Sequence record: OQ411014.1
Reading direction: 5' to 3' (one strand)
DNA: 64,000 bases
From: Escherichia phage EJP2
Under the pieces are notes generated by a model. The model had not been told where the DNA came from. It saw nothing but the letters and a program-made list of their open reading frames with translations, and searched no databases. Below are positions 7,506 through 47,123 of the stretch, one piece after another (position 1 is the stretch's first letter; each line of letters begins with the position of its first letter). The position numbers and the translations under genes are program-made.

Positions 7506-7508
7506 TAA

Positions 7509-17564: not shown

Positions 17565-17897
17565 ATGTTAGTATATAATTACTTCAGTTTTATAATCTTC
17601 ATGATGTTTTCGCTTTATATCATCATGGGTAACGTTGCGTGTTTCTTGAAGCATTATAAACTCGCAAACAGATGGTTTATGATGACAAATCCTTGCTTCC
17701 CGAATTTCTGTGCATTTATATCTGGGATTTTAGTACTGGTAGATTTGTTCTTGGGTATCTCATCGGAACAACCATGCTTCTCTGCGGTAGCGATGACATT
17801 TTTGCTCGTTGCAACAGTCCTGGGTATTGTGTTTATCATCTGTACAGTACTGATAGAGTTGATTAGTGATTGGCGACGAAAGTGGCCTGAACAATAA
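17565..17897 (+). CDS. hypothetical integral membrane protein
   Basis: 110 aa; hydrophobic helices. Confidence 0.55.
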   Translation: MLVYNYFSFIIFMMFSLYIIMGNVACFLKHYKLANRWFMMTNPCFPNFCAFISGILVLVDLFLGISSEQPCFSAVAMTFLLVATVLGIVFIICTVLIELISDWRRKWPEQ

Positions 17898-19641: not shown

Positions 19642-19677
19642 AAGAAAAAAGGAGACTTTGTAGTCTCCTTTCTTTTT
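19641..19677. terminator. bidirectional rho-independent terminator between convergent genes
   Basis: A-run, hairpin aaaggagact-ttgt-agtctccttt, T-run. Confidence 0.7.
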
Positions 19678-20854
19678 ATGGTAAATCAAATTCCGTATAT
19701 GAATATTTGTATACACCATCTGGTCCACGACCTGAGTATCGTAATTTACCAGAAGTAGTTATATATGCTGAAGTAATATTACTAGTACTGAATATGTTAA
19801 ACACTGACTTCATATCATTCACTGTACCGTTACCGAATGGTATCAGGTTAAGTTCATTGCCGTTGACACCAGTACTCAATCTTCCTGAAGAATTTGCTCC
19901 ACAACCATATGCATTTGATGGGCTAAGAGCAACGTAACCAGTATTACTAGTATAATAACTTAGTAAACCAATAAAATTCTCTGTAGTGGCTATTTCAGTA
20001 AAGACTCTAATATTGACAGAACTATTCACTCCATTACCTAAGTTTCCAGCATTCTGGCTTCCCGCAGCATATAGATGTGTTTTACCAGTACCGTCACTGT
20101 ACAATATTGTGAATGCTGATTCAGTTAGACCAATATCAAAAACACTAAGACCTGGGTCTGGTAGTGGTACTTGTGTTAGCACATTTATTCTTGTATCTGG
20201 ATGACCAATACCGAGTTGACCAAATGAGTTTGAACCTGAAACCCAAACACTTAAATCATTTTTTAATATCAGTACTGATGAATTAACAAATTCAACTTTT
20301 TGAACATCTGATGTAAGTTTTGAGAAAGTAGTTAGTGCAAGATAATTACCAGTTGCTAGTTGGCCTTGGTTATTAAAACCGCTTCTATAAAGATCACCAT
20401 TGTTCATTAATATATATAATGCATATACACCAGCATGAACAGATGTTATTTGATTAAGATTCCCTGTACCTATACCAGCTTCAATAAATGGGGTACAATC
20501 AGTATATGATGTCACAACTTCAGTAGATGATGTATTGCCAGTTTGAAAGCTACGGCGACCAGTATATAATAATTTTCCATCCATAGTTTTAATGATAACA
20601 AAACTTGTGTTTGTACACCAAACATCTTGAACATCATCTCTGATTAAAGTCCACTCTAGCTTTTGTTCTGTTGGCTTTCCATCCCCATAGATATAATTAT
20701 CAACTGTTCCTCCACCGATACCATACAATCTGTTATCATCATATAATACCATAAATGCCGGACGAGACGATGCATAAGGTACTAATATTTTTGTAATTTC
20801 AGGTAATGAAGGTGCTTTATTACCATAATTAAGCATTCGTACAAAAGGTAACAT
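19676..20854 (-). CDS. RCC1-like beta-propeller protein, N-terminal MLPFVRMLNYGN (distal member of paralog family)
   Basis: 392 aa; motifs WVSGSNSFGQLGIGH and YRSGFNNQGQLATGN; conserved leader/N-terminus shared with array at 33.4-50.4 kb. Confidence 0.8.
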   Translation of the reverse strand: MLPFVRMLNYGNKAPSLPEITKILVPYASSRPAFMVLYDDNRLYGIGGGTVDNYIYGDGKPTEQKLEWTLIRDDVQDVWCTNTSFVIIKTMDGKLLYTGRRSFQTGNTSSTEVVTSYTDCTPFIEAGIGTGNLNQITSVHAGVYALYILMNNGDLYRSGFNNQGQLATGNYLALTTFSKLTSDVQKVEFVNSSVLILKNDLSVWVSGSNSFGQLGIGHPDTRINVLTQVPLPDPGLSVFDIGLTESAFTILYSDGTGKTHLYAAGSQNAGNLGNGVNSSVNIRVFTEIATTENFIGLLSYYTSNTGYVALSPSNAYGCGANSSGRLSTGVNGNELNLIPFGNGTVNDMKSVFNIFSTSNITSAYITTSGKLRYSGRGPDGVYKYSYTEFDLP

Positions 20855-25680: not shown

Positions 25681-25917
25681 ATGAAACTATCTTTTATACG
25701 ATTGGGTCAATTCTTCGGTACTAATGTTATAACTTTACAACAAATTGCAGATAATACATCTCTAACGATTCAAGAAGTACTTGACTTGGATGACATAAAT
25801 TACGATACTACATGTATCGAGTACAAAGAAGGTCTTATCGAAAAGGATAAGATTCAGGCTAAAATTAATGGTGCTGGAAAAGTTCAGTACTGGAAGGGAG
25901 TGTTAAGTAATGTGTAA
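25681..25917 (+). CDS. hypothetical protein
   Basis: track ORF starts at TTG in terminator (25621); ATG at 25681 follows RBS aaggag (78 aa). Confidence 0.5.
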   Translation: MKLSFIRLGQFFGTNVITLQQIADNTSLTIQEVLDLDDINYDTTCIEYKEGLIEKDKIQAKINGAGKVQYWKGVLSNV

Positions 25918-27007
25918 CTTTGATGTTTTAGATTGTTTTTCTGTAGATGAAATTATTTATGAACCCAAATCACATAATTCAGTATCCCCAGGGCAATATG
26001 AAAAGAAAATAACAGAGTTATTTTCATTAAATGATCATAATGTTGTTTTTATCGGATTCAATATGAAAACCGCCAATGAATGGCAAGCGGGTGATACTAA
26101 AGTACATTTTAAACTCGTCAACAAATATTACGAGGATATTTTTTCTGATGTGACAATAGAAAAGATTATCAAAAAATTTAAGAAAAAAACCTACAAACCT
26201 AAACATAAAAAATTAACAATGGAAATTATTGAATATCAGGCCAAGGCTGTATCTTACTTAAAAGGCCATCGGATTATATCATTTGGTCCATTTGATGGTG
26301 CACTCACTAAAATTGAGATGGAATGTCTAATGGATTCACATACGTGGTCTACCAGTTACAATTCATATGTGACAAATGACAAAGGTTGTGTTAAATGTGG
26401 AATTGTAGTGACCTCTGAGTTTCACCGGACAAATCACGATGATGTGAACTTGTTCTTAAAAGAAAATGGAGATATTAACAATTATGATTTATATGAAGAA
26501 TTCATATATTCTAATAATTTAACAATAATAAAAAGAATTTGCAAAATATGTAATCATGGTAAATGTGGAGAATGGAAAACGTCTTATGAATGCATTAAGA
26601 ATCGTGATCATCAGTGTCCAGTATGTAAGACAACTGAAGCTCGGTGCATCAAACGTGATCTAGATCCGATTTTTAGTGGGTTCGGTGTGGTAGAATGTGA
26701 AAAAAAATATGATGATTGTAGGATGATTAATCATTTACGCTACGACCGCTTCATCCCGAAACTCAACATGTTATTTGAATATGATGGAGAGCAACATTTC
26801 AATAAGAGGAACATTCGTTGGCATGGTGAAAGTGGTGAAAAACGTGATCAAATAAAAACAGAGTTCGCAATCAACAACGGTTACAACTTCATTAGGATTG
26901 CATACTATGAAGACCACGTTGCAGTACTGGAATCTTTCCTTAAACTCATAGAAGAGAACCCAGGAAAGCAAATCGTACAGATCTATGGTGATGTGAAAAT
27001 TATCTAA
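25910..27007 (+). CDS. Cys-rich zinc-finger protein with C-terminal DUF559/Vsr-like endonuclease-fold motif
   Basis: 365 aa; CxxC clusters (CKICNHGKCGEW, CPVCKTTEARC); C-terminal FEYDGEQHF...RDQIKTEF...GYNFIRIAYYE resembles the EVDGxQH motif of DUF559 proteins. Confidence 0.6.
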   Translation: MCNFDVLDCFSVDEIIYEPKSHNSVSPGQYEKKITELFSLNDHNVVFIGFNMKTANEWQAGDTKVHFKLVNKYYEDIFSDVTIEKIIKKFKKKTYKPKHKKLTMEIIEYQAKAVSYLKGHRIISFGPFDGALTKIEMECLMDSHTWSTSYNSYVTNDKGCVKCGIVVTSEFHRTNHDDVNLFLKENGDINNYDLYEEFIYSNNLTIIKRICKICNHGKCGEWKTSYECIKNRDHQCPVCKTTEARCIKRDLDPIFSGFGVVECEKKYDDCRMINHLRYDRFIPKLNMLFEYDGEQHFNKRNIRWHGESGEKRDQIKTEFAINNGYNFIRIAYYEDHVAVLESFLKLIEENPGKQIVQIYGDVKII

Positions 27008-27013: not shown

Positions 27014-27038
27014 AGGTTGACTTCGGTCAGCCTTTTTG
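27014..27038 (+). terminator. terminator-promoter cassette
   Basis: aggttgac-ttcg-gtcagcct + T5 then TATTAT. Confidence 0.65.
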
Positions 27039-27181
27039 CTATTATATCAGTACTATCAATGTGAAAGAGTTCGATAAACATCTGAAGAAGAATGGCTTCG
27101 ATACGAACAACTTTGCTATCAGTAGTATTACTGAAATCATGATTCAATACAACATTATTGTAGATACATTACGAGGGTAAA

Positions 27182-27448
27182 ATGAAACCAATCACAACAA
27201 CACAGAGTACTAACCTAACGGTTTTACATGATGGTTTAAAAGGTACAGTACGTGATCTTCTGAACTTCATTGATAGTATTCAAGGTGATACCGGATACTG
27301 CATTTATACTACTATCATTCCTGGTGGTACAGAACTGTACTTCACCAATATGGAAGTATCGGAATCGGGTGAAACTGATGATTCATTCCAAGAAGCCATC
27401 CAACAATTTCAGGAATCCTTAGAGGATTTAGGTTTTACGGTACAATGA
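27182..27448 (+). CDS. hypothetical acidic protein
   Basis: 88-aa ORF. Confidence 0.55.
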   Translation: MKPITTTQSTNLTVLHDGLKGTVRDLLNFIDSIQGDTGYCIYTTIIPGGTELYFTNMEVSESGETDDSFQEAIQQFQESLEDLGFTVQ

Positions 27449-27456
27449 CGAAAAAA

Positions 27457-27481
27457 AGGTTGACTTCGGTCAGCCTTTTTC
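27457..27481 (+). terminator. terminator-promoter cassette
   Basis: ggttgac-ttcg-gtcagcc + T5 then cgtattatgtactcatcgaaacgaaggag. Confidence 0.65.
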
Positions 27482-27750
27482 GTATTATGTACTCATCGAA
27501 ACGAAGGAGATTATTATGTATATTTTAATAGTGGAGTACTGCTTCTATACTCTATGGATTTACTTAGGTTGTCGATATGGCTTACCTTTATTTGGTAAGT
27601 ACTTCTTAGATTCTGGTTCAGACAAATATGGCGAGAGAAATGACTAAAGGAATGCAGAAGTTAAACTGTTCGTGAAAACTCAAGACTGGCCTGAAGTTGT
27701 ACAGCAAGTAATATGTTCATTCACTAAGACTGAACTAATATAAGAAAAAA

Positions 27751-27775
27751 TGGTTGACTTCGGTCAGCCTTTTTC
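27751..27775 (+). terminator. terminator-promoter cassette
   Basis: ggttgac-ttcg-gtcagcc + T5 then cgtattatgtactcatcgaaacgaaacg. Confidence 0.65.
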
Positions 27776-27819
27776 GTATTATGTACTCATCGAAACGAAA
27801 CGTACTAAGGATTAAGAAA

Positions 27820-28590
27820 ATGAACCGCACAGAAAAAGCAATGCAAATCGAAAAGAACTTCAACTCCATGATGGCTGCTCTTGAATGTCTTCTGGATACC
27901 CAAGCTAACTCAATCAACTCTCTGATTGTTTCTGGTAAAGGTGGTGTTGGTAAAACTTATAACGTAGACAAACGTCTGCAACAAGCAGATAACAACTACG
28001 AAATCGACTACAAAAAGATTTCTGGTAAAGTAACTACTATGGGTCTGTACGAAGCACTGTATCACTCTCGCCACGCTGCTTCAGTACTGTTACTCGATGA
28101 CGTTGATATCTTCGGTGACGAAACTAATATCGACCTCCTTAAAGCAGTACTGGATACTTCCGATAAGCGTGTTGTTTCTTATGCAACTTCCGGTAAGCAC
28201 TTGGACGCGATGGGTATTCCTAAGCAGTTCGAGTTCCGTGGTAAAGTGATCTTCCTGACGAACAAAAACCTGTCACAGATTGCTAAAGGTAAAAGCAGTT
28301 TAGCACCACACATCGATGCTCTGATTACTCGTAGTATCTTCGTGGACCTGCAACTGTTCAGCAACGAAGAAGTAATGATTCACATCGAAAACGTTATGTC
28401 CAAAACTAACATTCTGGAAAACCAGTTCGTTAGTCCAGAAGGTGCAGGTCACATTCTGAACTTCATGCTCAAGAATGAAGATCGTCTGCGTAGTCCTTCT
28501 CTGCGTATGCCAGTACTGATCGCTGGCTTGTATAATAAGTTCCCGTTTGATTGGGAATCAATGGCTGAAAACATGTTCCTGGAGAAATAA
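27820..28590 (+). CDS. P-loop NTPase (Walker A GKGGVGKT, Walker B LLLDDVD)
   Basis: track ORF starts at TTG in terminator (27754); ATG at 27820 (256 aa); markedly high-expression codon usage. Confidence 0.7.
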   Translation: MNRTEKAMQIEKNFNSMMAALECLLDTQANSINSLIVSGKGGVGKTYNVDKRLQQADNNYEIDYKKISGKVTTMGLYEALYHSRHAASVLLLDDVDIFGDETNIDLLKAVLDTSDKRVVSYATSGKHLDAMGIPKQFEFRGKVIFLTNKNLSQIAKGKSSLAPHIDALITRSIFVDLQLFSNEEVMIHIENVMSKTNILENQFVSPEGAGHILNFMLKNEDRLRSPSLRMPVLIAGLYNKFPFDWESMAENMFLEK

Positions 28591-28591: not shown

Positions 28592-28969
28592 ATGCAAATG
28601 TTCTTGACACCTTTTGGTTCAATCTGTTTAGTACTGGAAACTTTCCTATCTGTTGCAGTACTATGTATGCTGATTGGGAAGTTCTTTAATGCTCGCCCAT
28701 TCAATAAGTACTATGATGCAATTTATGATCAAAGTGAAAGTGAAGGCGTAGCTATCTTTCAATTGCTGGTGGCTATCGTAATCGCTACTATCCTTGCATG
28801 GATTGGTATCATCGGGGAATTCGAACTCCTAACAGAATTTTCAGTTGTAGCAGCTTCTGTGTGTACTGCCTTTACAATTCTGTACTTTACAATCTGTGCA
28901 GTGGATGCTATTATTCCTTATATCAAAAACGTGCACCACAAAATCGTAAAGAAAACCAACGGGGAATAA
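28592..28969 (+). CDS. small integral membrane protein, member of tandem paralog family
   Basis: track ORF from 28547; ATG at 28592 follows RBS ggagaaa; resembles 30140-30496 (PF.KFYD, HKKIV.KK). Confidence 0.55.
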   Translation: MQMFLTPFGSICLVLETFLSVAVLCMLIGKFFNARPFNKYYDAIYDQSESEGVAIFQLLVAIVIATILAWIGIIGEFELLTEFSVVAASVCTAFTILYFTICAVDAIIPYIKNVHHKIVKKTNGE

Positions 28970-28970
28970 A

Positions 28971-29099
28971 ATGAAACCTGAGCAGTGGATTATTGATGAC
29001 ATGCGTTCTATGCGAGCAATTAAAGAACGCACATACGTACAAGAACAATATCTCGAACTCTTGATGTGGTACGTAAAAGTACTGAACTCTAAGGAATAA
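28971..29099 (+). CDS. hypothetical small protein (42 aa)
   Basis: ATG 1 nt after upstream stop; not in ORF track. Confidence 0.3.
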   Translation: MKPEQWIIDDMRSMRAIKERTYVQEQYLELLMWYVKVLNSKE

Positions 29100-29101
29100 T
29101 T

Positions 29102-29449
29102 ATGTCTGCATATACTATGATTACATGTTCTAATCTTGTTAGTATTGCGTACTTTATGTACGTCGCACTTATGGTTGTATGTTGGTACTTTCGCTTGTCA
29201 AAGGTTTATTGTGCAATTGTCCCAAGTTCTGAATTTGGGATGTTCTTTATAAAATTCATGTTCATTGTTACATCAGTAACGAACTTCCTACAACTTATGG
29301 ACTCCTTCTTCCCAGGTACTGGTGAGCCAGTAGCGTTTGCATTCTATATGAACGTTGCAATTGCCGGAGCTTTATTAGGTTGGTTCTTACTGTGTAAAGT
29401 AGTGAATTACCTTTTGTACATCCGAGCAGAACATATTCCACGGAGATAA
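29102..29449 (+). CDS. small integral membrane protein (tandem family)
   Basis: 115 aa; 3-4 hydrophobic helices; basic C-terminus. Confidence 0.6.
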   Translation: MSAYTMITCSNLVSIAYFMYVALMVVCWYFRLSKVYCAIVPSSEFGMFFIKFMFIVTSVTNFLQLMDSFFPGTGEPVAFAFYMNVAIAGALLGWFLLCKVVNYLLYIRAEHIPRR

Positions 29450-29452
29450 TAA

Positions 29453-29800
29453 ATGAATTCGTTCTTTTCTTCATTAGCAGCATTAGCAACAGAAAACACA
29501 CTATACACCATCTTCATTTGTACTCTATCATTATGTTATGGTGCAATGTGGTTCACTAATCATCGCTGGTTCCATGTTATTGATAAGAAGTTCGGTATAG
29601 TAGTATTTGCAATACATTTAGCAACACTAGTAGCAGTACTGACGTGGGTGATTGATACTCTAGCTCCAGGAAAGCCCGTTGGGATGGTTATCAACTTCAT
29701 GTATTGGGTTGTGATGGGTGTATTTGTTGGTGGTGTATTCATCTTTGAATATATGTCAAAGATTCGTAAAAAATATTTTATTGATAAAGGAAACTACTAA
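29453..29800 (+). CDS. small integral membrane protein (tandem family)
   Basis: 115 aa; 3-4 hydrophobic helices; basic C-terminus. Confidence 0.6.
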   Translation: MNSFFSSLAALATENTLYTIFICTLSLCYGAMWFTNHRWFHVIDKKFGIVVFAIHLATLVAVLTWVIDTLAPGKPVGMVINFMYWVVMGVFVGGVFIFEYMSKIRKKYFIDKGNY

Positions 29801-30138
29801 TGTTTTATTTCTGTTCAGCAGTAATGCTATTGTGGATCTTCACATGGGTTAGTTGGATCTTCTGTCTAGATATCGCCAAATGGTTCGACAAACAACTCAA
29901 ATACACTACATATGACTTTGATGGTAAGATCTTTATCATAATCGTTTCGGTTTTTGCTGTCATCGCTGAAGTTCTTGCGTGTCTTGGTATCTTTGTGATG
30001 CACGGTAAGGACTCAACGGTACTATTGGTAATTGCTACACTAATTACTAGTACTACCTTGATATCTTATGTAGTTTCGTTTATAATCTTTTGTGTCGTCC
30101 CCTGGAGGGATAAACTAGCACGTAAGAAAGGATATTAG
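29800..30138 (+). CDS. small integral membrane protein (tandem family)
   Basis: 112 aa; hydrophobic helices; basic C-terminus RDKLARKKGY. Confidence 0.6.
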   Translation: MFYFCSAVMLLWIFTWVSWIFCLDIAKWFDKQLKYTTYDFDGKIFIIIVSVFAVIAEVLACLGIFVMHGKDSTVLLVIATLITSTTLISYVVSFIIFCVVPWRDKLARKKGY

Positions 30139-30139
30139 T

Positions 30140-30496
30140 ATGGAATCATTATCACCGTTCGGGTTAGGTATTTGGTACATGAACGTAGTCATTTCAGTAC
30201 TGATAGTGTTGTTGTTCGTACTGAAGTTCTTCCATGTATCACCGTTTTATAAGTTCTATGACTCAATGATAGAAACTGCTGTTATTGTTCCTATTCTGTC
30301 TGTGGTATATGTAATATGCACATTGATTCTAGTGCCATCAAATATCAATACGTTCTGGACTATTTTTGGGATGATGATCCCAACGTTGTATGATATTTGT
30401 TTAGTAGTTTTCTTATTCATTTTAGGACTACTCGGTGCATATCAAGGCTTAGAGAATCTTCACAAGAAAATCGTTGATAAAAAGGTAAATCGATAA
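30140..30496 (+). CDS. small integral membrane protein (tandem family)
   Basis: 118 aa; hydrophobic helices; C-terminus NLHKKIVDKKVNR. Confidence 0.6.
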   Translation: MESLSPFGLGIWYMNVVISVLIVLLFVLKFFHVSPFYKFYDSMIETAVIVPILSVVYVICTLILVPSNINTFWTIFGMMIPTLYDICLVVFLFILGLLGAYQGLENLHKKIVDKKVNR

Positions 30497-30834
30497 TGAA
30501 TATTTCACCTGACTTCATCGTACTAGTGAACTGCATGAGTATCTTTGTATGTGCATGTTCACTGTTCCTTGCTGTTATCTGGTTCTTTGACACTCCATTA
30601 TGGAACCATTTTACCAGTACTGATGGATGTACCTTCATTGTTATTCCAGTGCAATTGTTCCTTACTGTTCTAGTACTTACAGGTCAGTACGCAACAACTG
30701 GTGGTAATATGAAGCCATACGAAATATTATTCCTAGGTATTCTTCTCGGAATGGCAGTAAACATCGGTTCAGTACTAGTAGCTTTAGTAATGTACTGGAG
30801 AACAAAGATGCTAGAACGTCGTGATAGACGATAA
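30496..30834 (+). CDS. small integral membrane protein (tandem family)
   Basis: 112 aa; hydrophobic helices; C-terminus MLERRDRR. Confidence 0.6.
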   Translation: MNISPDFIVLVNCMSIFVCACSLFLAVIWFFDTPLWNHFTSTDGCTFIVIPVQLFLTVLVLTGQYATTGGNMKPYEILFLGILLGMAVNIGSVLVALVMYWRTKMLERRDRR

Positions 30835-30850
30835 AAAATAGTTTCAAATA

Positions 30851-30876
30851 ACCCAGTCCTAATGGCTGGGTTTTGC
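30851..30876 (+). terminator. rho-independent terminator
   Basis: acccag-N9-ctgggt followed by tttt. Confidence 0.55.
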
Positions 30877-30989: not shown

Positions 30990-31292
30990 ATGCTAATTTA
31001 TATATTGACCTCGATTGTTGTGTATTATCACGTATGTATACTATTAGGTACTTCGCTGTTGTTGCTAGACTATGCTTTGGATGTAAACTATCTCGAAGGT
31101 TATAGATGGATTGCGGACGAGCCTCTCTTTATAATGTTGTGGTTCGTTGAGATCCCAATGATTATAGGATATGCATTGTCTTTCTACATGAACAGTACTT
31201 TAATATTAAGCATCTTATGGGTTAGTACTTTCATAGTACTAATAACTATCTTATTAACGTTAATTGGATATTATATACATAAAAATGTATAA
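30990..31292 (+). CDS. small integral membrane protein
   Basis: 100 aa; three hydrophobic helices. Confidence 0.5.
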   Translation: MLIYILTSIVVYYHVCILLGTSLLLLDYALDVNYLEGYRWIADEPLFIMLWFVEIPMIIGYALSFYMNSTLILSILWVSTFIVLITILLTLIGYYIHKNV

Positions 31293-31296
31293 CATA

Positions 31297-31324
31297 AAGC
31301 CCCTCAATCGAGGGGCTTTTTTTA
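31297..31324 (+). terminator. rho-independent terminator
   Basis: aaagcccctc-aat-cgaggggcttt followed by T-run. Confidence 0.7.
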
Positions 31325-31380
31325 TTGACACAATCCCTTAGACTATGCTATGATGTATCAAATTCATTGGAGACGCAACG

Positions 31381-32058
31381 ATGCATAAGAAGACACAAAA
31401 GAAGAAATCCCGTACATTCAAACATTACTTACACAGTTTTAAGTTCTGGCGGTACAGGTCTAAGTTATATGAGAAGATGTATGATGTTGGGCGTGAACCT
31501 TGGCAGTACTATTCGACTTACTCATTGGCAGTTCGAGAAAACGATTATGGCATTTCTAAGAAAGTACATAAGCTATTAGAAGCCTGTAATGTACGTTTGG
31601 ACTATGCAGAAGTACTACATGACTTTGTGTACATGTACATGGCAAAACCAAATGACCAAATGCACTACACAAGTGGTGAATTTATACACAGCAATACACA
31701 GTACGAATTCAATATCATGGGGGATAAATCCTTTATGATCCGTGAGTACAATCGTGCTGATCCACAGGTGTATATTTCGTACAAGAAAGGTTCAGTAAAG
31801 GTAGAACTAAAGTACGCATACAGTGCTAGACCTAAAAATAATGATGAGCTACAAGAAGCTCTCACTAAGCACGTACAATCTGAACTAACCGAAGCGGAGT
31901 TATTTCAGTACACAATTATGTACGAACAGTTCGAGAGACTCATTTTCATGTTGAATCTGCTTAAACCTTTATGTATATTCAAAGATACTAAAGTAAATGC
32001 CTATTCGTTGTACACACTATTCAGTACTCACGAGACTTACAAAGGACAATTACAATGA
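31381..32058 (+). CDS. basic protein, LQKHY/LTEAELFQY family (copy 1)
   Basis: 225 aa; shares LTKHVQSELTEAELFQYTIMY-type segment with 32055-32675 and 32672-33346. Confidence 0.6.
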   Translation: MHKKTQKKKSRTFKHYLHSFKFWRYRSKLYEKMYDVGREPWQYYSTYSLAVRENDYGISKKVHKLLEACNVRLDYAEVLHDFVYMYMAKPNDQMHYTSGEFIHSNTQYEFNIMGDKSFMIREYNRADPQVYISYKKGSVKVELKYAYSARPKNNDELQEALTKHVQSELTEAELFQYTIMYEQFERLIFMLNLLKPLCIFKDTKVNAYSLYTLFSTHETYKGQLQ

Positions 32059-32675
32059 AGCTAACAGCCTTACAGAAGCACTATCAACAAACGTTCAATT
32101 TCTACCGAACTCGATATCATCGCACACACGGAGCAACAATCTATCGCCCTCGTAGATTGGGACGTGTACGTAAAGGAGGTAAGTTCTTCAAAAAGATCTG
32201 TAACGAACTGAACATCAAATGTCATGGACTGTACGGTTCTAATTCTAATGGCAAAGTAAACGTAAATGAAAACCTTCGCAGTGGTACACGTATTGATACG
32301 GTTGCTGGGAATATCTACACATCCGAAAGCCGGATGTATTTCCCTAAAGGTAAGTCCGAAGATTCTCGCTATGTATTGTGTTATGATTCTTGTGAGTCAC
32401 CGCTTAGTATCGAAGATATCATGGTACTTGATTATAAGTTCGAATACCAGGATGATTCGGTCACTAGTGAAGAACTAACCGACATCGTTCAGAAGCACCT
32501 AAAAGGTACTCTAACGGAGGCAGAACTATTTGTAGCCCTACTATACCATGAAGAGGTAATGCAGCTTCTGGCTGGTGCTGAGATGCTTTATAAGCTATTT
32601 GGATACGTACACAAAGAGCAAGTATCACTCATTGACATTTATGTTTCAGTACTGAAGAGTGAGCAATCTAAATGA
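32055..32675 (+). CDS. basic protein, LQKHY/LTEAELF family (copy 2)
   Basis: 206 aa; N-terminus MKLTALQKHYQQ matches MKLSKLQKHY of 50502-51194. Confidence 0.6.
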   Translation: MKLTALQKHYQQTFNFYRTRYHRTHGATIYRPRRLGRVRKGGKFFKKICNELNIKCHGLYGSNSNGKVNVNENLRSGTRIDTVAGNIYTSESRMYFPKGKSEDSRYVLCYDSCESPLSIEDIMVLDYKFEYQDDSVTSEELTDIVQKHLKGTLTEAELFVALLYHEEVMQLLAGAEMLYKLFGYVHKEQVSLIDIYVSVLKSEQSK

Positions 32676-33346
32676 AGATGAACCGTTTTGGGAATCACTA
32701 CAACAAGTACTTCAAACATATGCACTACGTACAAGCAGAATCTACTACTTCTGCGTATGTATATAACCGTAATGCAACCAGACGGACTCATATGCGTAGG
32801 TCGTTTTCTGCTGTACTGAAGAAGTTCATGCGAGCTAAAGGATTTATGTTCAAAAAAGATACACGGTCTGGATGGTCTTGGGAGAACCATAACACATCAC
32901 CATCATCTGTGTATAATATAGGTCTAACATATTTCAGTTTTATGATTGATGATATTCCTTGTTTGGTTTCGTATTATACATATCCATATACCTACAATGT
33001 CACTGTATATGTGAATTATATATCAGTCGATGATGATGAAAAATTACTGAAACAAAACGTTATTCAAGTTGGTATATCAAATGAAGTATACGCCGCCCAG
33101 GATAAAGAGTTGGAGGATATTCTTAGGAAAAAGTTACCAAAGTACCATGAAGTACTGACGGATGAAAAGATGTTTCAGTACAGTACAATGATACCGAATG
33201 CAGATGTATATTGGAAAGCTAACAATATATATCATAATATTACACAAATGATAATGAGTAGTTATCATGAGAACATACATCACCCATACAATAAAAAGAA
33301 TAAAACAATCATTCATTTATTGAATTGTATCTTGAAGGAATTATAA
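32672..33346 (+). CDS. basic protein, LTDEKMFQY family (copy 3)
   Basis: 224 aa; LPKYHEVLTDEKMFQYSTMIPNADVY resembles LHTTYKNYTEEEIFQQSLVLPNAELY of 50502-51194. Confidence 0.6.
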   Translation: MKMNRFGNHYNKYFKHMHYVQAESTTSAYVYNRNATRRTHMRRSFSAVLKKFMRAKGFMFKKDTRSGWSWENHNTSPSSVYNIGLTYFSFMIDDIPCLVSYYTYPYTYNVTVYVNYISVDDDEKLLKQNVIQVGISNEVYAAQDKELEDILRKKLPKYHEVLTDEKMFQYSTMIPNADVYWKANNIYHNITQMIMSSYHENIHHPYNKKNKTIIHLLNCILKEL

Positions 33347-33385: not shown

Positions 33386-34516
33386 TTAAAATGGTAAATC
33401 TATTTGTTTGGTAATCGTCATACCTAAAGGTATTGAACACATTGACATATTTTTCCCATTTAGATTGGAAGGCGGCTGTCCGTTCATCCATATATTGGTA
33501 TCGTCATAGAATGTACTCCACCACGTAGAACCACCTTCTATGTGAATATTTTGATTAAAATCAGCGAATTGGCATTCTTGAAAAACTTCAAAAAACGGAA
33601 TAGATGATAAACTACTACTAGTAAATGGTGTATATCCTGTTGCCATTAACTTATTCGTATCTGAATTTACTAAAAAGATAACATTACCTGCATTGTATGG
33701 TACATATTTGGGATATAAATTACTCATATCACCAATAGGGAAGTTAATATTAAATATTTTACTATGCGTACCCGTTCCTGAAAGTGTAGTACCAGTTACG
33801 TATATTTTATTATCAGTTGTACCCATAATAAACCCAATACCAAACCCAGAACAAAATGTAATGTCGTATGAAACATTATCAAATAGTTGAACAAACGTAG
33901 TTACATCACCTGCTGGACTTTGTATTTGTAAACTATTGTTTGCACCTGCTCCCCAAACAGTTCCGTTACTTTTCACTTTGAATAAAGTATCTCCTATATA
34001 GTGACCATATATGCTATCAACTTCAGTATCAAGTTCTGTCCATTGTGACACAAAGTTTTTATGCCCTAAACCTAAACACCCATTACGATTAAGCCCTCTA
34101 CCGTACAATGTACCATCATTCATCAATACAAATACTGTATATCCACATAACATTTTTTTAATTTGTGTAACGTCGATACCATTAAAATACCCACTCCAAT
34201 CTGCATAACCTTGTTGCATTGTCGAAGAATTTGTAAATGCTTGTGTTGGCCCTGAACCATATATTTTACCACCTTTAATAATGACTGAAAACGATCCCAA
34301 CCACACATCTTGAACATCCTGAGCAATTGTTTTCAATTCACCATATGCAGTTAAGGGAGTACTTTGCCCTGAACTATATGTTGAATCTTCTCCGTGTGCA
34401 TATAATGTTCCATCTTGTGTTAGAATCATTTCTAAGTAAACAGCACTTACACTTTTCTTTATTTTATTAACTTCTATTTTATTTCCGTACTTCAACATCC
34501 TTGCAAAAGGTAACAT
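33386..34516 (-). CDS. RCC1-like beta-propeller paralog, N-terminal MLPFARMLKYGN
   Basis: 376 aa; YGRGLNRNGCLGLGHK-type repeats; 9 bp downstream of preceding paralog (likely co-transcribed). Confidence 0.8.
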   Translation of the reverse strand: MLPFARMLKYGNKIEVNKIKKSVSAVYLEMILTQDGTLYAHGEDSTYSSGQSTPLTAYGELKTIAQDVQDVWLGSFSVIIKGGKIYGSGPTQAFTNSSTMQQGYADWSGYFNGIDVTQIKKMLCGYTVFVLMNDGTLYGRGLNRNGCLGLGHKNFVSQWTELDTEVDSIYGHYIGDTLFKVKSNGTVWGAGANNSLQIQSPAGDVTTFVQLFDNVSYDITFCSGFGIGFIMGTTDNKIYVTGTTLSGTGTHSKIFNINFPIGDMSNLYPKYVPYNAGNVIFLVNSDTNKLMATGYTPFTSSSLSSIPFFEVFQECQFADFNQNIHIEGGSTWWSTFYDDTNIWMNGQPPSNLNGKNMSMCSIPLGMTITKQIDLPF

Positions 34517-34525
34517 GATAATCTC

Positions 34526-35704
34526 CTATCGATCAAATTTAAAATCTGTTATGTGTGTCCAAACATGTGGTAATGGTGTACTCAATGGTGTAAATCCAGC
34601 AGGGTCTGACAAAGTACTACCACATGCGTACATAAATTGATTACCAGTACAATCCATTATAGCATAAGAACGTGTAGCTGTACCACATTTGAATCCAACT
34701 GCACTGCTTGGTGTTGGTAATACTTCAAATGTTAGTGCATTTGATGAACCACCACCATCCTTTGTACCTGCGATGTATAGTACTCCATTATTATCAATGA
34801 TTAAGTTGGTCCAATATGCTTGTTCTCTCCCAGCAAGGAAATATGATAAATCACCTGGTACAAATGGTAATGTTCCTTTATACATGGTAGTATTAACATT
34901 CACTGGTGCTCCAGATACACCCCAAGCACTCATGAAGTTTCTTCCACTTGCGTAGAATGTAGTTCCTTTACCGTAAAGTATTAACGTCGCTTGACTTGTA
35001 CGCATTGCATTGTATTCAAACTCAGGATCATCAGTTGCGTTCTTAAAAATCTGTGTCCATGATGTGATATTTCCAGCAGTTGTTACGCCCATTTGATAAT
35101 AATAATTATCACCAGTAGCATAGAATTCTTTTGGTCCAGTTTGCACAACTGCATTACTATTAGTGAGCCAAAAATTCAAAGTTCCAGTTCTTACTATAGT
35201 TGGTGTAAAATTACCGACTGTGTTTCCTTTACCGAAATAACCATTCGCGTTATCCCCATGACCCCACACATCACCATTTGTTGTACGTATGAATAATGTA
35301 CCAGTATTGAAAGCAACTTTTTCTATAGTACTGATATCAATACCAGCCGAAGTGTACTTCGATGTGAAATCTTGAAAAGTACCCCAATAATTAGATGAAC
35401 CATTAAACATTGCTTGTCTACCAGTGTACTTCACTTTATTATCATTAGTTATAAGTAACGTCCCCCACACTGACGCGAACATCAACTTAACATTTTCCAT
35501 AACGAAATATGGTTTACCATATGCCGCAGCGGTAGAGTTCCTCCCTAAAAGTTGACCATTATTACTACAACCCCATACTTCGCCATTATCCAATAGCATT
35601 AACATTGTAGGCTTACCCGATGACACATCCAAGAAGAAATCCACGGGTGTTGCACCTTTCGGTATCACATTTCCATATTCTAACATCCTTACAAAAGGTA
35701 ACAT
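34526..35704 (-). CDS. beta-propeller-like paralog, N-terminal MLPFVRMLEYGN
   Basis: track ORF extends to TTG at 35710; ATG at 35704 follows GGAGA; Gly/Thr/Asn-rich repeat body. Confidence 0.8.
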   Translation of the reverse strand: MLPFVRMLEYGNVIPKGATPVDFFLDVSSGKPTMLMLLDNGEVWGCSNNGQLLGRNSTAAAYGKPYFVMENVKLMFASVWGTLLITNDNKVKYTGRQAMFNGSSNYWGTFQDFTSKYTSAGIDISTIEKVAFNTGTLFIRTTNGDVWGHGDNANGYFGKGNTVGNFTPTIVRTGTLNFWLTNSNAVVQTGPKEFYATGDNYYYQMGVTTAGNITSWTQIFKNATDDPEFEYNAMRTSQATLILYGKGTTFYASGRNFMSAWGVSGAPVNVNTTMYKGTLPFVPGDLSYFLAGREQAYWTNLIIDNNGVLYIAGTKDGGGSSNALTFEVLPTPSSAVGFKCGTATRSYAIMDCTGNQFMYACGSTLSDPAGFTPLSTPLPHVWTHITDFKFDR

Positions 35705-35740
35705 AATCAAATCTCCGTAATTAAATCATACAGTATTTAC

Positions 35741-35771
35741 AAAAAAAATGCCAGTACATATTTCAGTACTA
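35741..35771 (-). terminator. rho-independent terminator within paralog array (example)
   Basis: minus strand: agtactgaaatatgtactggc followed by T8. Confidence 0.6.
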
Positions 35772-35775
35772 TATA

Positions 35776-36942
35776 TTATTGGGGAAAGCGTGGATCGTCA
35801 AGAATAAATTCAGTACTGCTAGTTCCACCATCTGTGATATATGTTCCAGTACTATAGATGTAGTTTCCATCAGTTAGATACGTTCTGAAATTCGTACCAA
35901 TAACCTTAACATTAGGCATATCAGTTACTTCAGATGGTAAAATACATTTTGTATAGAATAGTTTATTTCCACTTGAACCTACACCTAAACAAACATAGTT
36001 GCTGGTATTATAACCACTACCATATACACCATCGGTTGTAACAACAAATGATTTATAATATTCGTATCCCAAATTGACACTTAAACGTTCACCTGCGGGT
36101 TGTTGTCCAGCCGAAATAGTACTATAAGCCTTATAAGTACCAGCCGAATCCTGACCATTACCAAGTGCACCAAATCGAGCAGCACCACCATTATATACGT
36201 TTTTAACTAATGAAGAATTTTGGTTTATACCAATAGCAACAAATTCGTTATTACTATACGCTATATTTGGACTTCCAACAGAAGTTGAATTTAACGTATA
36301 AATGGTTACTCTAGCACTAACATCATTATTATTATACCCAACAATTGTTCCAGTGTAATATAATTTACCGTCTTCTGTATTAAATCCATGCATGGTGCTA
36401 TTTGCGAATATTTTATGTGGGATAATACCATCTGGTATGGTGGCTTTAACAAAAGAACCAGTAATATTCGCTGTAGTATTATTTCCTAATTCACCATAGC
36501 TGCCGTACCCAGTTGACCATATAGTATCATTGGATAATAAAACACTTAGAGAGAATTTTGATGTTACGATATCTTTAATATCTGCCTCTAACAACGCAAA
36601 CAATGAAGAACAATCTGTCCATTGATTAACTGAACCACCAGGAACGCCAATATATGAGTTATTACCACTGAACCAGAACTCCCCATTGAACTTTTGAACT
36701 AATATAGTTTCCGCAGTAACCCATACCTTTTGTACGGAATCCAACGTCGGTGTCCATACAGTAACTTTAGTACCACTGGCATTACCCATACCAAACGCAC
36801 CCGATTGGTCACGCCCACGAACAAATAACTCACCAGATGTCATTAGAACAACCGTGAAATACATAGAGCATTTAATATCTTTTATTGGTGCTGGTGTTGG
36901 GGCTTTATTCCCATAATTTATCATCCTCACAAAAGGTAACAT
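35776..36942 (-). CDS. RCC1-like beta-propeller paralog, N-terminal MLPFVRMINYGN
   Basis: 388 aa; YGSGYNTSNYVCLGVG-type repeats. Confidence 0.8.
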   Translation of the reverse strand: MLPFVRMINYGNKAPTPAPIKDIKCSMYFTVVLMTSGELFVRGRDQSGAFGMGNASGTKVTVWTPTLDSVQKVWVTAETILVQKFNGEFWFSGNNSYIGVPGGSVNQWTDCSSLFALLEADIKDIVTSKFSLSVLLSNDTIWSTGYGSYGELGNNTTANITGSFVKATIPDGIIPHKIFANSTMHGFNTEDGKLYYTGTIVGYNNNDVSARVTIYTLNSTSVGSPNIAYSNNEFVAIGINQNSSLVKNVYNGGAARFGALGNGQDSAGTYKAYSTISAGQQPAGERLSVNLGYEYYKSFVVTTDGVYGSGYNTSNYVCLGVGSSGNKLFYTKCILPSEVTDMPNVKVIGTNFRTYLTDGNYIYSTGTYITDGGTSSTEFILDDPRFPQ

Positions 36943-37019
36943 AATTAATTCTCCAAAATTAAAATAATTATAAGGTATTTAATAAAAAAATACCAGCACC
37001 TTTCAGTACTGGTATTATA

Positions 37020-38402
37020 TTACATACTAGTTAATTGTATTTCTGTTAATGTCGCATAAGTTACGCCTTTGTAAATCCCACGCCAATAAATTTTCCCATC
37101 AGTTCCCATAACTACTAATCCATAGGACAAATGAGCACCAGCATCGTTATAGAGTGTTCCACCAACGTACATAGCATCATATACATCAATGCCAATATCT
37201 TCTGGTGTGAAATTCGCCACCGCCCCAGTAGACCATGTTGGACTTGCAAAATAATCACTATATACACCATGTGCTACTGTTATAACACTTGATCCTCGTT
37301 CATACAACACAGTACCACAAAAACTCATGTGGATACGCGTCGTCTGCGTCGTCGGTATATCAACCAATCCAGCACCTGGGTAAGACCCTGTAGTAATCTT
37401 CTTGTAATCACCACCAGTTGTGTTCAAGCTATTGACAGATGTACTACTCATACCAACGTTGTAGTTCTGGTAGTAATAGAAATTACCACTTATATATACT
37501 GAATACCCACCACCAGTACCATTACGTAATAATTTACCACCGGAAGTGAATAATATACCCTCATTACATGAATCAAAATGATATGTATCAGTTGTTGGAG
37601 CAACAATCTCAGTCCATGCTGTTAGGTTCTGATACGCCCCAGGTGTGTTCGTTAAGCATCTATTACTGTTTGTTCCTTTACCAACCAACGAGCCATCTTC
37701 TAATTGTGCATAAATTGCTTGATAACCATCAGTGTAATAAGTTGAGTTGTGAGCGAAACCAAGAATACCACTTATCTTTTTGACTTTTTGTGTTAATTTG
37801 GTATCTTTAACAAAACCAACAGTCCATTGACCATATGATACAATCTCGTTTATCATACCTAACCCATATGGGCCATTGTACCATATCTCACCCGCATCGT
37901 TAAGTACTACAACTAATCCTTCGTACTTACTTGTAAATGTCCCACTATTCCATGTTACTGGTCCGTTATTATATGCACTTACAACAATCGCATCAACTAT
38001 AGTCCCAACTTTGGTCAAAAATGCACTTACATCAACCCATTGGTAATCAGTCGTGAAAGGTGCACTAGTAGTACTCGCGTTAGTGAACAAACCAGTACTG
38101 TACTGTCCACAGAAGAAATATTTTCCGTTATTATCCAGTACTAAACATCCAATGTTTAATAACCAGAAATCCTTTACATTAGTACGGATAGCTTCTAAAC
38201 CAGAATCAACTGGAGTTTGTACACCAAAGGCAACCTTCTTCGTGTTACCCATTCCATAAAGAGTACCATCATTTCCTAAAATAGCACCCGCCCAGTTCCC
38301 ACCGCCATTTGAGTTTCGTCCTCTACCTACAGTTTGCATCTTTGTACCTTTAGGCACTTCAACTGTATTTCCATAATTTAACATCCTCACAAAAGGTAAC
38401 AT
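37020..38402 (-). CDS. beta-propeller-like paralog, N-terminal MLPFVRMLNYGN
   Basis: track ORF extends to TTG at 38417; ATG at 38402 (460 aa); Gly/Thr/Tyr-rich repeats. Confidence 0.8.
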   Translation of the reverse strand: MLPFVRMLNYGNTVEVPKGTKMQTVGRGRNSNGGGNWAGAILGNDGTLYGMGNTKKVAFGVQTPVDSGLEAIRTNVKDFWLLNIGCLVLDNNGKYFFCGQYSTGLFTNASTTSAPFTTDYQWVDVSAFLTKVGTIVDAIVVSAYNNGPVTWNSGTFTSKYEGLVVVLNDAGEIWYNGPYGLGMINEIVSYGQWTVGFVKDTKLTQKVKKISGILGFAHNSTYYTDGYQAIYAQLEDGSLVGKGTNSNRCLTNTPGAYQNLTAWTEIVAPTTDTYHFDSCNEGILFTSGGKLLRNGTGGGYSVYISGNFYYYQNYNVGMSSTSVNSLNTTGGDYKKITTGSYPGAGLVDIPTTQTTRIHMSFCGTVLYERGSSVITVAHGVYSDYFASPTWSTGAVANFTPEDIGIDVYDAMYVGGTLYNDAGAHLSYGLVVMGTDGKIYWRGIYKGVTYATLTEIQLTSM

Positions 38403-38443
38403 AACTAAATTCTCCAAAATTAAAATAATTATAATGTATTTAC
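38403..38443 (-). promoter_or_regulatory. conserved upstream leader/promoter module of paralog array (example)
   Basis: minus strand gtaaatacattataattattttaattttggagaatttagtt-ATG; near-identical upstream of at least 10 paralogs. Confidence 0.5.
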
Positions 38444-38474
38444 AAAAAAATACCAGTACGTATTTCAGTACTGG
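38444..38474 (-). terminator. rho-independent terminator within array
   Basis: minus strand: ccagtac-tgaaatac-gtactgg followed by T7. Confidence 0.65.
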
Positions 38475-38482
38475 CTTTTTAA

Positions 38483-39652
38483 TTAAGAAGGTAATAGAAA
38501 ATTAGCAAATCCACCCATCCCCAATGTGGGTACTAATCCAGCTACAGTTGGTGCTCTATTTGATGGTGAGCTAACAGCAATTCGACCATCTTTATATACC
38601 AATGAATTAGAACTGCCTGTGCATAAGTATCCACCTGAATATGGTACTGTACTTTGTTTACATTTGGTGAAAATTCCAATGGAAGACGATGCATTTATTA
38701 AATTTACACCATCATATCCACAACTATATATCCACCCATCTTCCCCTATGTATAAAGAAGAACTTGCATTTGCCGAACTAACGAACTTTCTGAATATTCG
38801 CTGATCCATAGGAGCAACTGACAATGTACCGGAATAGAATTTATTATTAATACCACTAGTAACACCGTCACCAAATACACCATAAGAACCTGAACCAGTT
38901 GCATAGTATCGTTTATCTCCCAAGAAAATCATACAGTTGTTATTGCATATTTTATATTGATATATTAAAGTAGTATCAATTCCTGGGAAAGATTCAGTAA
39001 ATGATAGAACATTAGCAATTGTACTTGCGTTGCATTGATGACTTGCATTTTGTCCTGATGATAAAATTGTTCCATCTTGTAGTAATATTCGAGATGTACC
39101 AGTACCACTAAAAACTCTTAATGCTGGTTTTGTATTATATATTTGTTTAAATGAAAAGAAACCAACAGACATTATTCCCTGACCACTCCATCCAGTATTG
39201 TCAGTTCCAATAGCCCATACTGAATCGTCTTCAGCGATAACCATAACACCATAGCGGTCAATGCTAATATCTTTAATTTTGGACATATCAATTGCATTGA
39301 ACCTTGAACTAATATCCTTCCATGTTGTTGTGCTTGCAGTAGGACTTACAGTTATATCATTCCCTGCTATATAAACACTCCCACTTATTGTAACATAAAT
39401 CGTTTGGGAATACCCAGTACTGCATAATAATACATTTTCTGAACTTGGAACCTTAATCCATTCGTTGTAAACTCCAGTTTGGGGCGTAATACCTAACTGA
39501 TAAAAATCATTTGACCCAGTAAGATATAGTTTTCCATCCTTAACAAAACTGAAATTAGAACTGTAATCACTGGATGTAAGTCTTGGTTCAATTGGTACTG
39601 GTGGTACTGGTGCATTATTCCCATATTCTAACATCCTCACAAAAGGTAACAT
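38483..39652 (-). CDS. RCC1-like beta-propeller paralog, N-terminal MLPFVRMLEYGN
   Basis: track ORF to 39667 (TTG); ATG at 39652; resembles 43486-44658. Confidence 0.8.
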   Translation of the reverse strand: MLPFVRMLEYGNNAPVPPVPIEPRLTSSDYSSNFSFVKDGKLYLTGSNDFYQLGITPQTGVYNEWIKVPSSENVLLCSTGYSQTIYVTISGSVYIAGNDITVSPTASTTTWKDISSRFNAIDMSKIKDISIDRYGVMVIAEDDSVWAIGTDNTGWSGQGIMSVGFFSFKQIYNTKPALRVFSGTGTSRILLQDGTILSSGQNASHQCNASTIANVLSFTESFPGIDTTLIYQYKICNNNCMIFLGDKRYYATGSGSYGVFGDGVTSGINNKFYSGTLSVAPMDQRIFRKFVSSANASSSLYIGEDGWIYSCGYDGVNLINASSSIGIFTKCKQSTVPYSGGYLCTGSSNSLVYKDGRIAVSSPSNRAPTVAGLVPTLGMGGFANFLLPS

Positions 39653-39739
39653 AACTAAATTCTCCAAAATTAAAATAATTATAATGTATTTACAAAAAAA
39701 TACCAGTACGTATTTCAGTACTGGTATTGTGGTATTGTA

Positions 39740-40846: not shown

Positions 40847-40937
40847 AATTAAATCTCCATATAATAATTATAATGTATTTACAAAAAAAGCCAGTACGTA
40901 TTTCAGTACTGGTATTGTGGTATTGTGGTATTGTGAT

Positions 40938-42128: not shown

Positions 42129-42215
42129 AACTAAATTCTCCAAAATTAAAATAATTATATTGTATTTACAAAAAAAATACCAGCACATATTTCAGTACTG
42201 GTATTGTTTCTTATT

Positions 42216-43406: not shown

Positions 43407-43447
43407 AACTAAATTCTCCAAAATTAAAATAATTATAATGTATTTAC

Positions 43448-43481
43448 AAAAAAATACCAGTACGTATTTCAGTACTGGTAT
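43448..43481 (-). terminator. rho-independent terminator within array
   Basis: minus strand: taccagtac-N8-gtactggta followed by T7. Confidence 0.65.
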
Positions 43482-43485
43482 AATG

Positions 43486-44658: not shown

Positions 44659-44732
44659 AATCAAATCTCCGTAATTAAATCATACAGTATTTACAAAAAA
44701 ATACCAGTACATATTCCAGTACTGGCCTATTA

Positions 44733-45854: not shown

Positions 45855-45935
45855 AATAAAATCTCCGTAATTAAATCATACAGTATTTACAAAATACCAG
45901 CACATATTTCAGTACTGGTATAGTGGTATATTAAA

Positions 45936-47084: not shown

Positions 47085-47123
47085 AACTAAATTCTCCATA
47101 CAATAATTATAATGTATTTAACC

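Follow-up and report, generated by a model that had tools for sequence, protein, structure and literature searches.

Tandem array of putative small inner-membrane proteins behind a NrdC.10-like ATPase gene in Escherichia phage EJP2

The array and the superfamily it defines

A tandem array of small membrane-protein genes is described here from Escherichia phage EJP2 (record OQ411014.1), of which a stretch of 64,000 nucleotides (nt), referred to as the window, was analyzed. The original prediction had placed six paralogous open reading frames (ORFs) at 28592-30834, and all six were found there with exact coordinates (m1 to m6, or copies 1 to 6; Table 1), encoding proteins of 125, 115, 115, 112, 118 and 112 amino acids (aa). 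Each starts with ATG and is preceded by a Shine-Dalgarno (SD)-like GGAG/AGGA sequence. The genes had been called almost abutting, which is correct for junctions that are +1 to +3 nt wide or overlap by 1 nt (m3/m4 and m5/m6) and fails only between m1 and m2, where an interval of 132 nt holds an overlooked ORF of 42 aa. Coupling within the array is otherwise tight or translational. The seventh small membrane ORF announced downstream (m7) is present and has three transmembrane (TM) segments. The earlier analysis missed an ATPase gene and promoter element, the 42-aa gene, extra paralogs elsewhere in the window and the order of the sub-families.

By sequence comparison, the six genes belong to one superfamily of ~110-aa, three-TM proteins with predicted N-out/C-in topology, because phmmer, hhalign and hidden Markov model (HMM) scores exceed those of decoys or shuffles. 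The pooled set comprised 54 small proteins encoded in the syntenic arrays of eight phages (the window, Turkey5, CRJP21, Hallingskeid, RaK2, Munch, GAP32 and CBB), together with a neighboring XaC1 protein; when it was searched by phmmer with reversed-sequence decoys, 221 real matches were obtained against two decoy matches, the top decoy reaching 9.5 bits. Single-linkage clustering resolved sub-families A (m2, m3), B (m1, m5), C (m4), D (m6) and E (m7). Profile comparison by hhalign joined A to B, A to C and B to C from end to end (95-99 columns), with probabilities of 79-93% as against less than 1% for column-reversed controls. A family HMM was built from A, B and C (36 sequences, alignment A2) with m6 excluded, and m6 scored 29.7 bits against it, whereas 300 class-preserving shuffles and 63 reversed decoys peaked at 14.9 and 6.3 bits. 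The similarity between copies 1 and 5 that had been noticed earlier is real (26% identity over 117 aa; 27-29 bits by phmmer against the top reversed decoy at 9.5). The proposal of a diversified membrane-protein family was thereby borne out, the relatedness of all six lying well above chance in decoy-controlled phmmer, HMM and profile-profile comparisons; an alignment without relatedness among the six had been named beforehand as the result that would overturn it, and relatedness above decoys was found.

Membership was assigned to full-length matches (~100-130 aa) that score above decoys, with TM1 ending in W-[YF]-F and TM3 followed by [RH]-x-K. A scan of all ORFs in the window found these features in m1-m5 (60-82 bits), m6, 7509-7838 (33.1 bits) and 7161-7505 (21.7 bits), with a decoy maximum of 9.4 bits; scores are inflated for sequences used in building the sub-family HMMs, and confirmation comes from independent sets (the metagenome L013 and the secondary clusters described below). 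The two ORFs at 7161-7838 are, on these scores, further family members, and 17565-17897 (12.4 bits) is probably another. The terminal gene m7 scores 1.2 bits, below the level of membership, and its orthologues 12.6-20.3 bits, while hhalign relates E to the superfamily at 12-25% probability (controls at most 1%). Judged by these comparisons, m7 represents a separate conserved terminal family, E, possibly related to the superfamily and found in Hallingskeid, RaK2, Munch and L013; tblastn of m7 against 50,697 phage genomes returned Hallingskeid as its sole match.

The original count of three to four hydrophobic helices can be narrowed, since hydropathy (Kyte-Doolittle), the AlphaFold2 model of copy 1 and the family alignment all indicate three TM helices and not four; the basic C-terminal tail described at the same time is present in each of the six proteins. 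The m1 model is of moderate confidence (pLDDT 76.6, a predicted score of the local distance difference test), with helices at residues 7-31, 35-45, 49-75 and 78-122, and a short helix occupies the first loop of each array protein. Across 67 members, lysine and arginine residues per protein amount to 0.30 in the N-terminus, 3.00 in loop 1, 0.27 in loop 2 and 4.15 in the C-terminal tail, a clear positive-inside signature that predicts a periplasmic N-terminus and a cytoplasmic C-terminus. The family is accordingly described as small proteins of predicted inner-membrane location. Information in the HMM is concentrated at two spots, the W-[YF]-F motif, where TM1 ends on the cytoplasmic side, and a single R/H immediately behind TM3; the remainder is a hydrophobic pattern. 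Because the conserved motifs sit at the predicted cytoplasmic face, the TM and periplasmic surfaces would be free to vary.

Table 1. Features of the array locus and dispersed paralogs in the window (promoters, terminators and topology are predictions)
Feature	Position	Strand	Length (aa)	Sub-family	Family HMM (bits)	Remarks
PeSL-like composite element	27752-27782	+				Hairpin with overlapping sigma-70-type promoter; predicted start of transcription unit
NrdC.10-like stand-alone AAA+ ATPase	27820-28590	+	256			First operon gene
m1 (copy 1)	28592-28969	+	125	B	81.9	AlphaFold2 model
Soluble peptide gene	28971-29099	+	42			Inside array; conserved; not a family member; PHROG 27942
m2 (copy 2)	29102-29449	+	115	A	64.1	
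m3 (copy 3)	29453-29800	+	115	A	67.2	Identical to EJP02_489
m4 (copy 4)	29800-30138	+	112	C	60.0	Start overlaps m3 stop by 1 nt
m5 (copy 5)	30140-30496	+	118	B	71.2	
m6 (copy 6)	30496-30834	+	112	D	29.7	Start overlaps m5 stop by 1 nt
Weak terminator-like hairpin	30850-30872	+				3' of m6
m7	30990-31292	+	100	E	1.2	Three TM; array-terminal gene
Strong intrinsic terminator	31296-31319	+				Closes the unit
New promoter	31325-31354					3' of strong terminator
Extra paralog outside array	7161-7505	+	114	A-like	21.7	Identical to EJP02_437
Extra paralog outside array	7509-7838	+	109	A-like	33.1	In tandem with 7161-7505
Probable distant paralog	17565-17897	+	110		12.4 (weak)	PHROG 19285

The ATPase, the 42-aa gene and the predicted transcription unit

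The ATPase is a stand-alone AAA+ module with invariant Walker A and Walker B motifs and is ~39% identical to T2/T4 NrdC.10, so that both the AAA+ fold and homology to NrdC.10 are recognizable. Its start at 27820 agrees with the N-termini of relatives, and the protein is 100% identical to an Escherichia phage EJP2 protein. By megablast against 50,697 phage records, the gene is 83-91% identical to those of Asteriusvirus and other Rak2-like jumbo phages. The ATPase gene lies directly 5' of the main array in all array genomes (the window, Turkey5, CRJP21, Hallingskeid, RaK2, Munch, L013 and L016-L018), and homologues of NrdC.10 occur in ~1,300 phage records. In public records these proteins carry mistaken labels that vary: "thioredoxin" (EJP2 protein P0097 and many T4-like records), "transcriptional regulator FleQ" (Turkey5, L001 8185-8958) and "regulator of chromosome condensation" (CRJP21).

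The gene of the 42-aa peptide MKPEQWIIDDMRSMRAIKERTYVQEQYLELLMWYVKVLNSKE, which separates copies 1 and 2, is the sole stretch of the locus whose DNA is conserved (71-84%) between distant Rak2-like genera. This gene has a match to PHROG 27942 at 5e-26, is 129 nt long in the four genera compared and 132 nt in XaC1, and its differences per codon position (78/42/129) favor the third position. These features identify it as a real protein gene. An RNA element was considered for this region and rejected on the codon-position pattern and the conservation of length, and Rfam had nothing there. The counterpart in RaK2 is unannotated (JQ513383, about 218462-218590). As the Xanthomonas phage XaC1 has the 42-aa gene without a membrane array, the gene is not strictly tied to the array.

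Directly upstream of the ATPase lies an element that consists of the hairpin GGTTGAC-TTCG-GTCAGCC, a T-run and TTGACT-17-TATTAT. Its 18-nt core, GGTTGACTTCGGTCAGCC, has nine near-exact plus-strand copies between 10.4 and 27.8 kb, where 0.04 would be expected, and none inside the array; they stand at 10487, 14858, 17909, 24053, 24788, 25619, 27015, 27458 and 27752. Each copy forms a hairpin whose 5' arm and loop contain the TTGACT -35 box, and in the four copies within the signal scan (27015-27752) T-runs and TATTAT follow. Promoter-early stem-loops (PeSL) of T4-like phages are repeats between genes, enriched in variable regions, that are joined to a sigma-70-like promoter, an SD sequence and a start codon (PMC4122927). 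The EJP2 repeats have the same composite build and resemble PeSL terminator/promoter cassettes, although their -35 box lies inside the hairpin and not downstream. The wider setting is also reminiscent of the cassettes in T4-like hyperplastic regions, with small accessory ORFs in a variable region beside conserved genes, a composite element in nine copies and a mosaic history; the array cargo differs in being a structured multigene family and not a set of unrelated ORFans. The T4-type late motif TATAAATA occurs once in the 64 kb, at 14883, just after a PeSL-like element and far from the array. This represents a strong depletion (1 versus 9.4 +/- 2.5 expected; all 100 shuffles had at least one). 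Sub-threshold leader and small-RNA models of Rfam all stack on the terminator at 31296-31319.

A single early unit comprising the ATPase gene, m1, the 42-aa gene, m2-m6 and m7, transcribed by host RNA polymerase, is predicted because of the sigma-70-type element upstream, the tight coupling of the genes and the confinement of terminators to the 3' side of m6 (a weak one) and of m7 (a strong one). The earlier suggestion of one operon thus gains support from predicted signals. A literature search for Asteriusvirus transcriptomics gave no relevant result.

Distribution and divergence of the array

The array proteins had no above-threshold match in Pfam, NCBIfam or PADLOC; sub-threshold matches there to EIID-AGA, CbiQ, ABC2, WecA, KwaA and Phage_holin_2 were dismissed as noise reflecting TM composition only. 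No transporter or regulator subunit was similar above threshold in the curated libraries, and clear homology to a housekeeping transporter, named beforehand as a finding against the proposed family, did not pass threshold in any library search. The superfamily is split by PHROGs into several small unannotated groups (26405, 12682, 27618 and 16874), of which 16874 has the generic label "membrane protein" and the others no function. Among the copies, m1 matches 26405 (2e-9) and m5 and m6 weakly match 27618 and 16874; m3 and m4 had no PHROG match, and m2 only a partial one at chance level (PHROG 23833, E=0.044). A fold search of the PDB with the m1 model revealed no relative (best E=1.3), the hits to SemiSWEET, Orai and designed bundles being generic helical matches, and the same model retrieved from BFVD only Rak2-like phage proteins (121Q and another entry) at template modeling scores (TM-scores) of 0.57-0.75.

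Larger sequence collections gave a similarly narrow picture. Against 5.8 billion proteins, m1 alone recovered only its own 99% cluster and a profile search 29 proteins, named "hypothetical protein" throughout. An exhaustive HMM search of 1.84 billion representatives yielded 57 matches, nearly all of 98-128 aa and end-to-end; a 368-aa match (P0057) proved spurious, being a translated tandem repeat with "LWYNKKK". In 50,697 phage records, tblastn with m6 gave zero matches and megablast with the region 3' of the ATPase gene none. With the ATPase as anchor in IMG/VR, the family was found at three of 82 loci with NrdC.10 homologues, all of them in Rak2-like genomes of 346-360 kb, and it is absent from the syntenic place in T2, GAP32, CBB and XaC1. 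On these searches, the family is confined to Rak2-like jumbo phages. The T2 genes that follow nrdC.10, nrdC.9 and nrdC.7, were tried as single-copy ancestors and rejected with scores no higher than decoys. The genes that follow the 42-aa ORF in the Mimasvirus phages GAP32 and CBB belong to a different family by HMM and hhalign: a four-gene tandem family in GAP32 (L010 1387-2673), with homologues in CBB (L007 6129-7407), whose proteins of ~100-117 aa have a single N-terminal TM helix and a soluble domain ending ...GYK.T.

With a slash marking the 42-aa gene, the sub-families run B / A A C B D E in the window, A A / A A A C B B B D E in Hallingskeid, A A A C C B B B in Turkey5, A A A A C B B in CRJP21, / A A A A C B B E in RaK2 and ? 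B A / E in Munch; the metagenome L013 has six A copies followed by C B B D D E. Genera share one collinear order, A..C..B..D..E, and the array therefore predates their divergence. The window stands out in that its array opens with a B-type copy. Arrays contain between 3 copies (confirmed, in Munch) and 11 (Hallingskeid and L013), D and E are absent from the Turkey5 and CRJP21 arrays, and comparison of the arrays indicates change by gain and loss within sub-families. Several related loci deserve mention here. In Asteriusvirus relatives, a second and smaller, A-like cluster lies ~6-8 kb 5' of the ATPase (Turkey5, L001 876-2259; L016 43-1078; CRJP21, L002 10-354), in parallel with the dispersed copies at 7161-7838 of the window. 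Two overlapping ORFs of CRJP21 in different frames (L002 8583-8951 and 8890-9315) both have B-type scores, which suggests a frameshift or sequencing error in a duplicated B gene. In CMSTMSU (L003) the array is broken up into short ORFs, in keeping with the "UNVERIFIED" status of that record.

The array has diverged far more than the gene next to it. Between the window and Hallingskeid, identity is 87% for the ATPase and 79% for the 42-aa peptide, compared with 38% for m4 and m7 and 22-33% for m1-m3 and m5, and a counterpart of m6 was undetectable in Hallingskeid. Relative to Turkey5, the ATPase is 91% and an upstream 88-aa ORF 99% identical, whereas m1 is the sole array protein with a detectable counterpart (31%). 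Kimura distances are 0.09-0.15 for the ATPase versus 1.2-2.3 for the array, and array sequences diverge 8-15 times faster than the ATPase. Between Turkey5 and CRJP21, the ATPase has a ratio of nonsynonymous to synonymous rates (dN/dS) of 0.06 and a proportion of synonymous differences (pS) of 0.46; array orthologues have pS of 0.57-0.83, often saturated, and dN/dS of ~0.3-0.6 where estimable, dS being saturated for several pairs. A dN/dS below 1, with weaker purifying selection than on the ATPase, argues that the array genes are functional.

Mosaic ancestry, through cassette exchange or homogenization of the ATPase, is plausible because PeSL-like repeats and an HNH homing endonuclease gene lie immediately upstream. 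This gene, of the HNH/DUF4379 type (25910-27007; PHROG 559, 8e-26), stands just before the ATPase operon and could drive local gene conversion, adding to the mosaic history. Directly 3' of the array, basic soluble paralogs of 206-230 aa (MK..L.K.Y..F...) occur at 31381-33346 and 50502-51194 on the plus strand, one of them matching PHROG 29152. As tblastn detected no orthologues of these paralogs in Turkey5 or Hallingskeid, the downstream flank is also hypervariable.

About 10% of RaK2 gene products are paralogs (PMC3622015). The window contains another such array, 14 tandem RCC1-like paralogs of ~300-460 aa at 33386-50396 on the minus strand, with one dispersed copy at 19676-20854 (minus). They share MLPF[AV]R[MI]..YGN at or near the N-terminus, relatives are labeled "regulator of chromosome condensation" or "DNA condensation protein", and the sign of the GC (guanine-cytosine) skew flips over the block. 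Both arrays are lineage-specific tandem expansions; they differ in fold and compartment, the RCC1-like proteins being soluble, beta-propeller-like and ~390 aa long, as against 110-aa membrane proteins.

Candidate functions of the array proteins

We agree with the original prediction that the function is not determinable from sequence. The reading that we tentatively favor, at somewhat less than an even chance, is that the paralogs act individually as inner-membrane conflict proteins, either in superinfection exclusion or by neutralizing membrane-embedded host or defense factors. It is preferred because of the predicted early expression and inner-membrane location, the narrow distribution, the diversification with retained ORFs, the flux in copy number and the combination of a conserved cytoplasmic patch with variable outer surfaces. 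The divergence is arms-race-like, with ATPases 87-91% identical beside array proteins that are 22-38% identical or undetectable. Shortly after infection the proteins would enter the inner membrane of the host, where each paralog, by way of its variable TM and periplasmic surface, would act on a membrane-located target of its own. Candidates for such targets are the DNA-entry apparatus of competing phages, giving superinfection exclusion, or membrane-embedded factors of host defense or physiology; a shared role in anchoring or in binding a partner would fall to the conserved cytoplasmic patch.

T4 Imm and P22 SieA are small inner-membrane superinfection-exclusion proteins that block DNA entry, and the array proteins, by prediction, share with them their size class, integral inner-membrane location, enterobacterial hosts and accessory, non-core status (PMC11436027). 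Sequence or fold similarity to them was undetectable, and no such family appeared among Pfam, PHROG or NCBIfam matches even at permissive E-values. T4 imm is an early gene, as the array is predicted to be. Imm and SieA are encoded by single-copy genes, whereas the EJP2 family forms tandem arrays of 3-11 copies with several sub-families in fixed order behind an AAA+ ATPase gene.

Several observations weigh against a conflict role. Library and fold searches found no sequence or fold similarity to characterized exclusion, anti-defense or defense proteins, and the genome papers on EJP2, RaK2 and CBB, like a comparative survey of jumbo phages, contain nothing specific on the array genes. Because pS is higher in the array than in the ATPase, part of the contrast between them reflects mosaic ancestry and not rate. 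Divergence may also be partly regional, through recombination or relaxed constraint, and not driven by selection imposed by targets. Finally, the sub-family order and the overlapping start and stop codons would equally fit subunits of one hetero-oligomeric complex.

That the paralogs are such subunits, with the ATPase docking on the cytoplasmic W-[YF]-F / R-x-K patch, appears unlikely, although the ATPase gene immediately precedes the main array in every array-bearing genome, the sub-families are collinear and conservation is limited to the cytoplasmic face. Homologues of NrdC.10 are present in ~1,300 genomes and the family is missing at 79 of the 82 IMG/VR loci; since most NrdC.10 loci lack the family, the ATPase does not need it. 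The secondary clusters (7161-7838 in the window; L001 876-2259 in Turkey5) are not beside the ATPase, and the varying sub-family copy number, with D and E missing in Turkey5 and CRJP21, is a poor fit to a machine of fixed stoichiometry. The slot after nrdC.10 in T2 holds small variable ORFs too, so that adjacency may merely mark a hyperplastic insertion site. A more specific form of this idea, to which we would give a somewhat slimmer chance, is a modular hetero-oligomeric platform of non-redundant paralogs that recruits the ATPase into an ATP-driven membrane machine of Rak2-like phages, for example one that gates or seals the DNA-entry site. The paralogs could also be host-takeover factors that modulate normal inner-membrane physiology (transporters, respiration or proton motive force, division or secretion) and have no part in conflict. 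Many early phage ORFans are host-takeover genes, and the early-type location and predicted inner-membrane nature of the proteins would suit this role. Nevertheless, we regard it as improbable: housekeeping targets are conserved in enterobacteria, extreme divergence and copy-number flux within the same host genus would be unexpected, and the library searches revealed no similarity to transporter or regulator subunits above threshold.

Of the functions originally proposed, holin or antiholin activity agrees least well with the evidence. On this view the array proteins would set the time of lysis as holins, antiholins or pinholins, and they have the hallmarks of class I holins such as lambda S105, namely ~100-125 aa, three TM helices, predicted N-out/C-in topology and a basic, charged cytoplasmic C-terminal tail (PMC9636201). 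Moreover, the Rak2-like endolysin is of the signal-arrest-release (SAR) type with an N-terminal TM domain (PMC5259590), and no holin is assigned in the literature covered. However, the family has no significant holin match (Pfam Phage_holin_2 at E=0.24 and 12.1 bits against a 32-bit cut-off; a BFVD holin at E=1.1), and the flanking genes scanned (HNH endonuclease, 88-aa ORF, AAA+ ATPase and 206-225-aa paralogs) include no lysis gene. In RaK2 the endolysin is gp506 and the array ORF309-316. The predicted promoter upstream is of sigma-70, early-like type, no late motif TATAAATA stands near the array, and 3-11 copies with a co-transcribed ATPase gene are atypical, which makes this role very improbable. 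The possibility that the ORFs are decaying or non-functional duplicates, or chance hydrophobic ORFs in an AT-rich hyperplastic region, accords with the very low sequence conservation and with m6 lacking any match in 50,697 phage genomes, but is in effect refuted by the evidence of conservation. Across genera and metagenomes, the ORFs have kept their length, three-TM pattern, motifs and order, dN/dS is below 1 where measurable, SD-ATG coupling is tight, and decoy-controlled searches are overwhelmingly positive.

In the EJP2, RaK2, CBB and jumbo-phage literature, no account was found of one superfamily uniting these proteins, of its topology and motifs, of the conserved order of sub-families, of a link to NrdC.10 or of a confinement to Rak2-like phages. 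That small accessory membrane proteins expand within one lineage, in a hyperplastic region of phage genomes, is in general familiar. Three-TM genes of CRJP21 (L002 6067-8269) are mislabeled "regulator of chromosome condensation" or "putative DNA condensation protein" in the public record. Phage genes for small membrane proteins rank with the most poorly understood, yet the few that have been characterized (Imm, SieA, holins and RI) govern who infects and when the cell lyses. The locus defines a previously unnamed superfamily with diagnostic motifs, a fixed sub-family order and extreme diversification, adjoining a highly conserved ATPase gene. Should it be merely a lineage-specific accessory family, its recognition would still correct public mis-annotations. 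An ATP-driven membrane machine, if it exists, would offer the first functional handle on NrdC.10, which is conserved in ~1,300 genomes of T4-like and jumbo phages. If, instead, each paralog blocks a different competitor phage or defense effector, the array would be a compact and tractable "library" of membrane-level inhibitors, relevant to the design of phage cocktails with Asteriusvirus-type therapeutic candidates such as EJP2.

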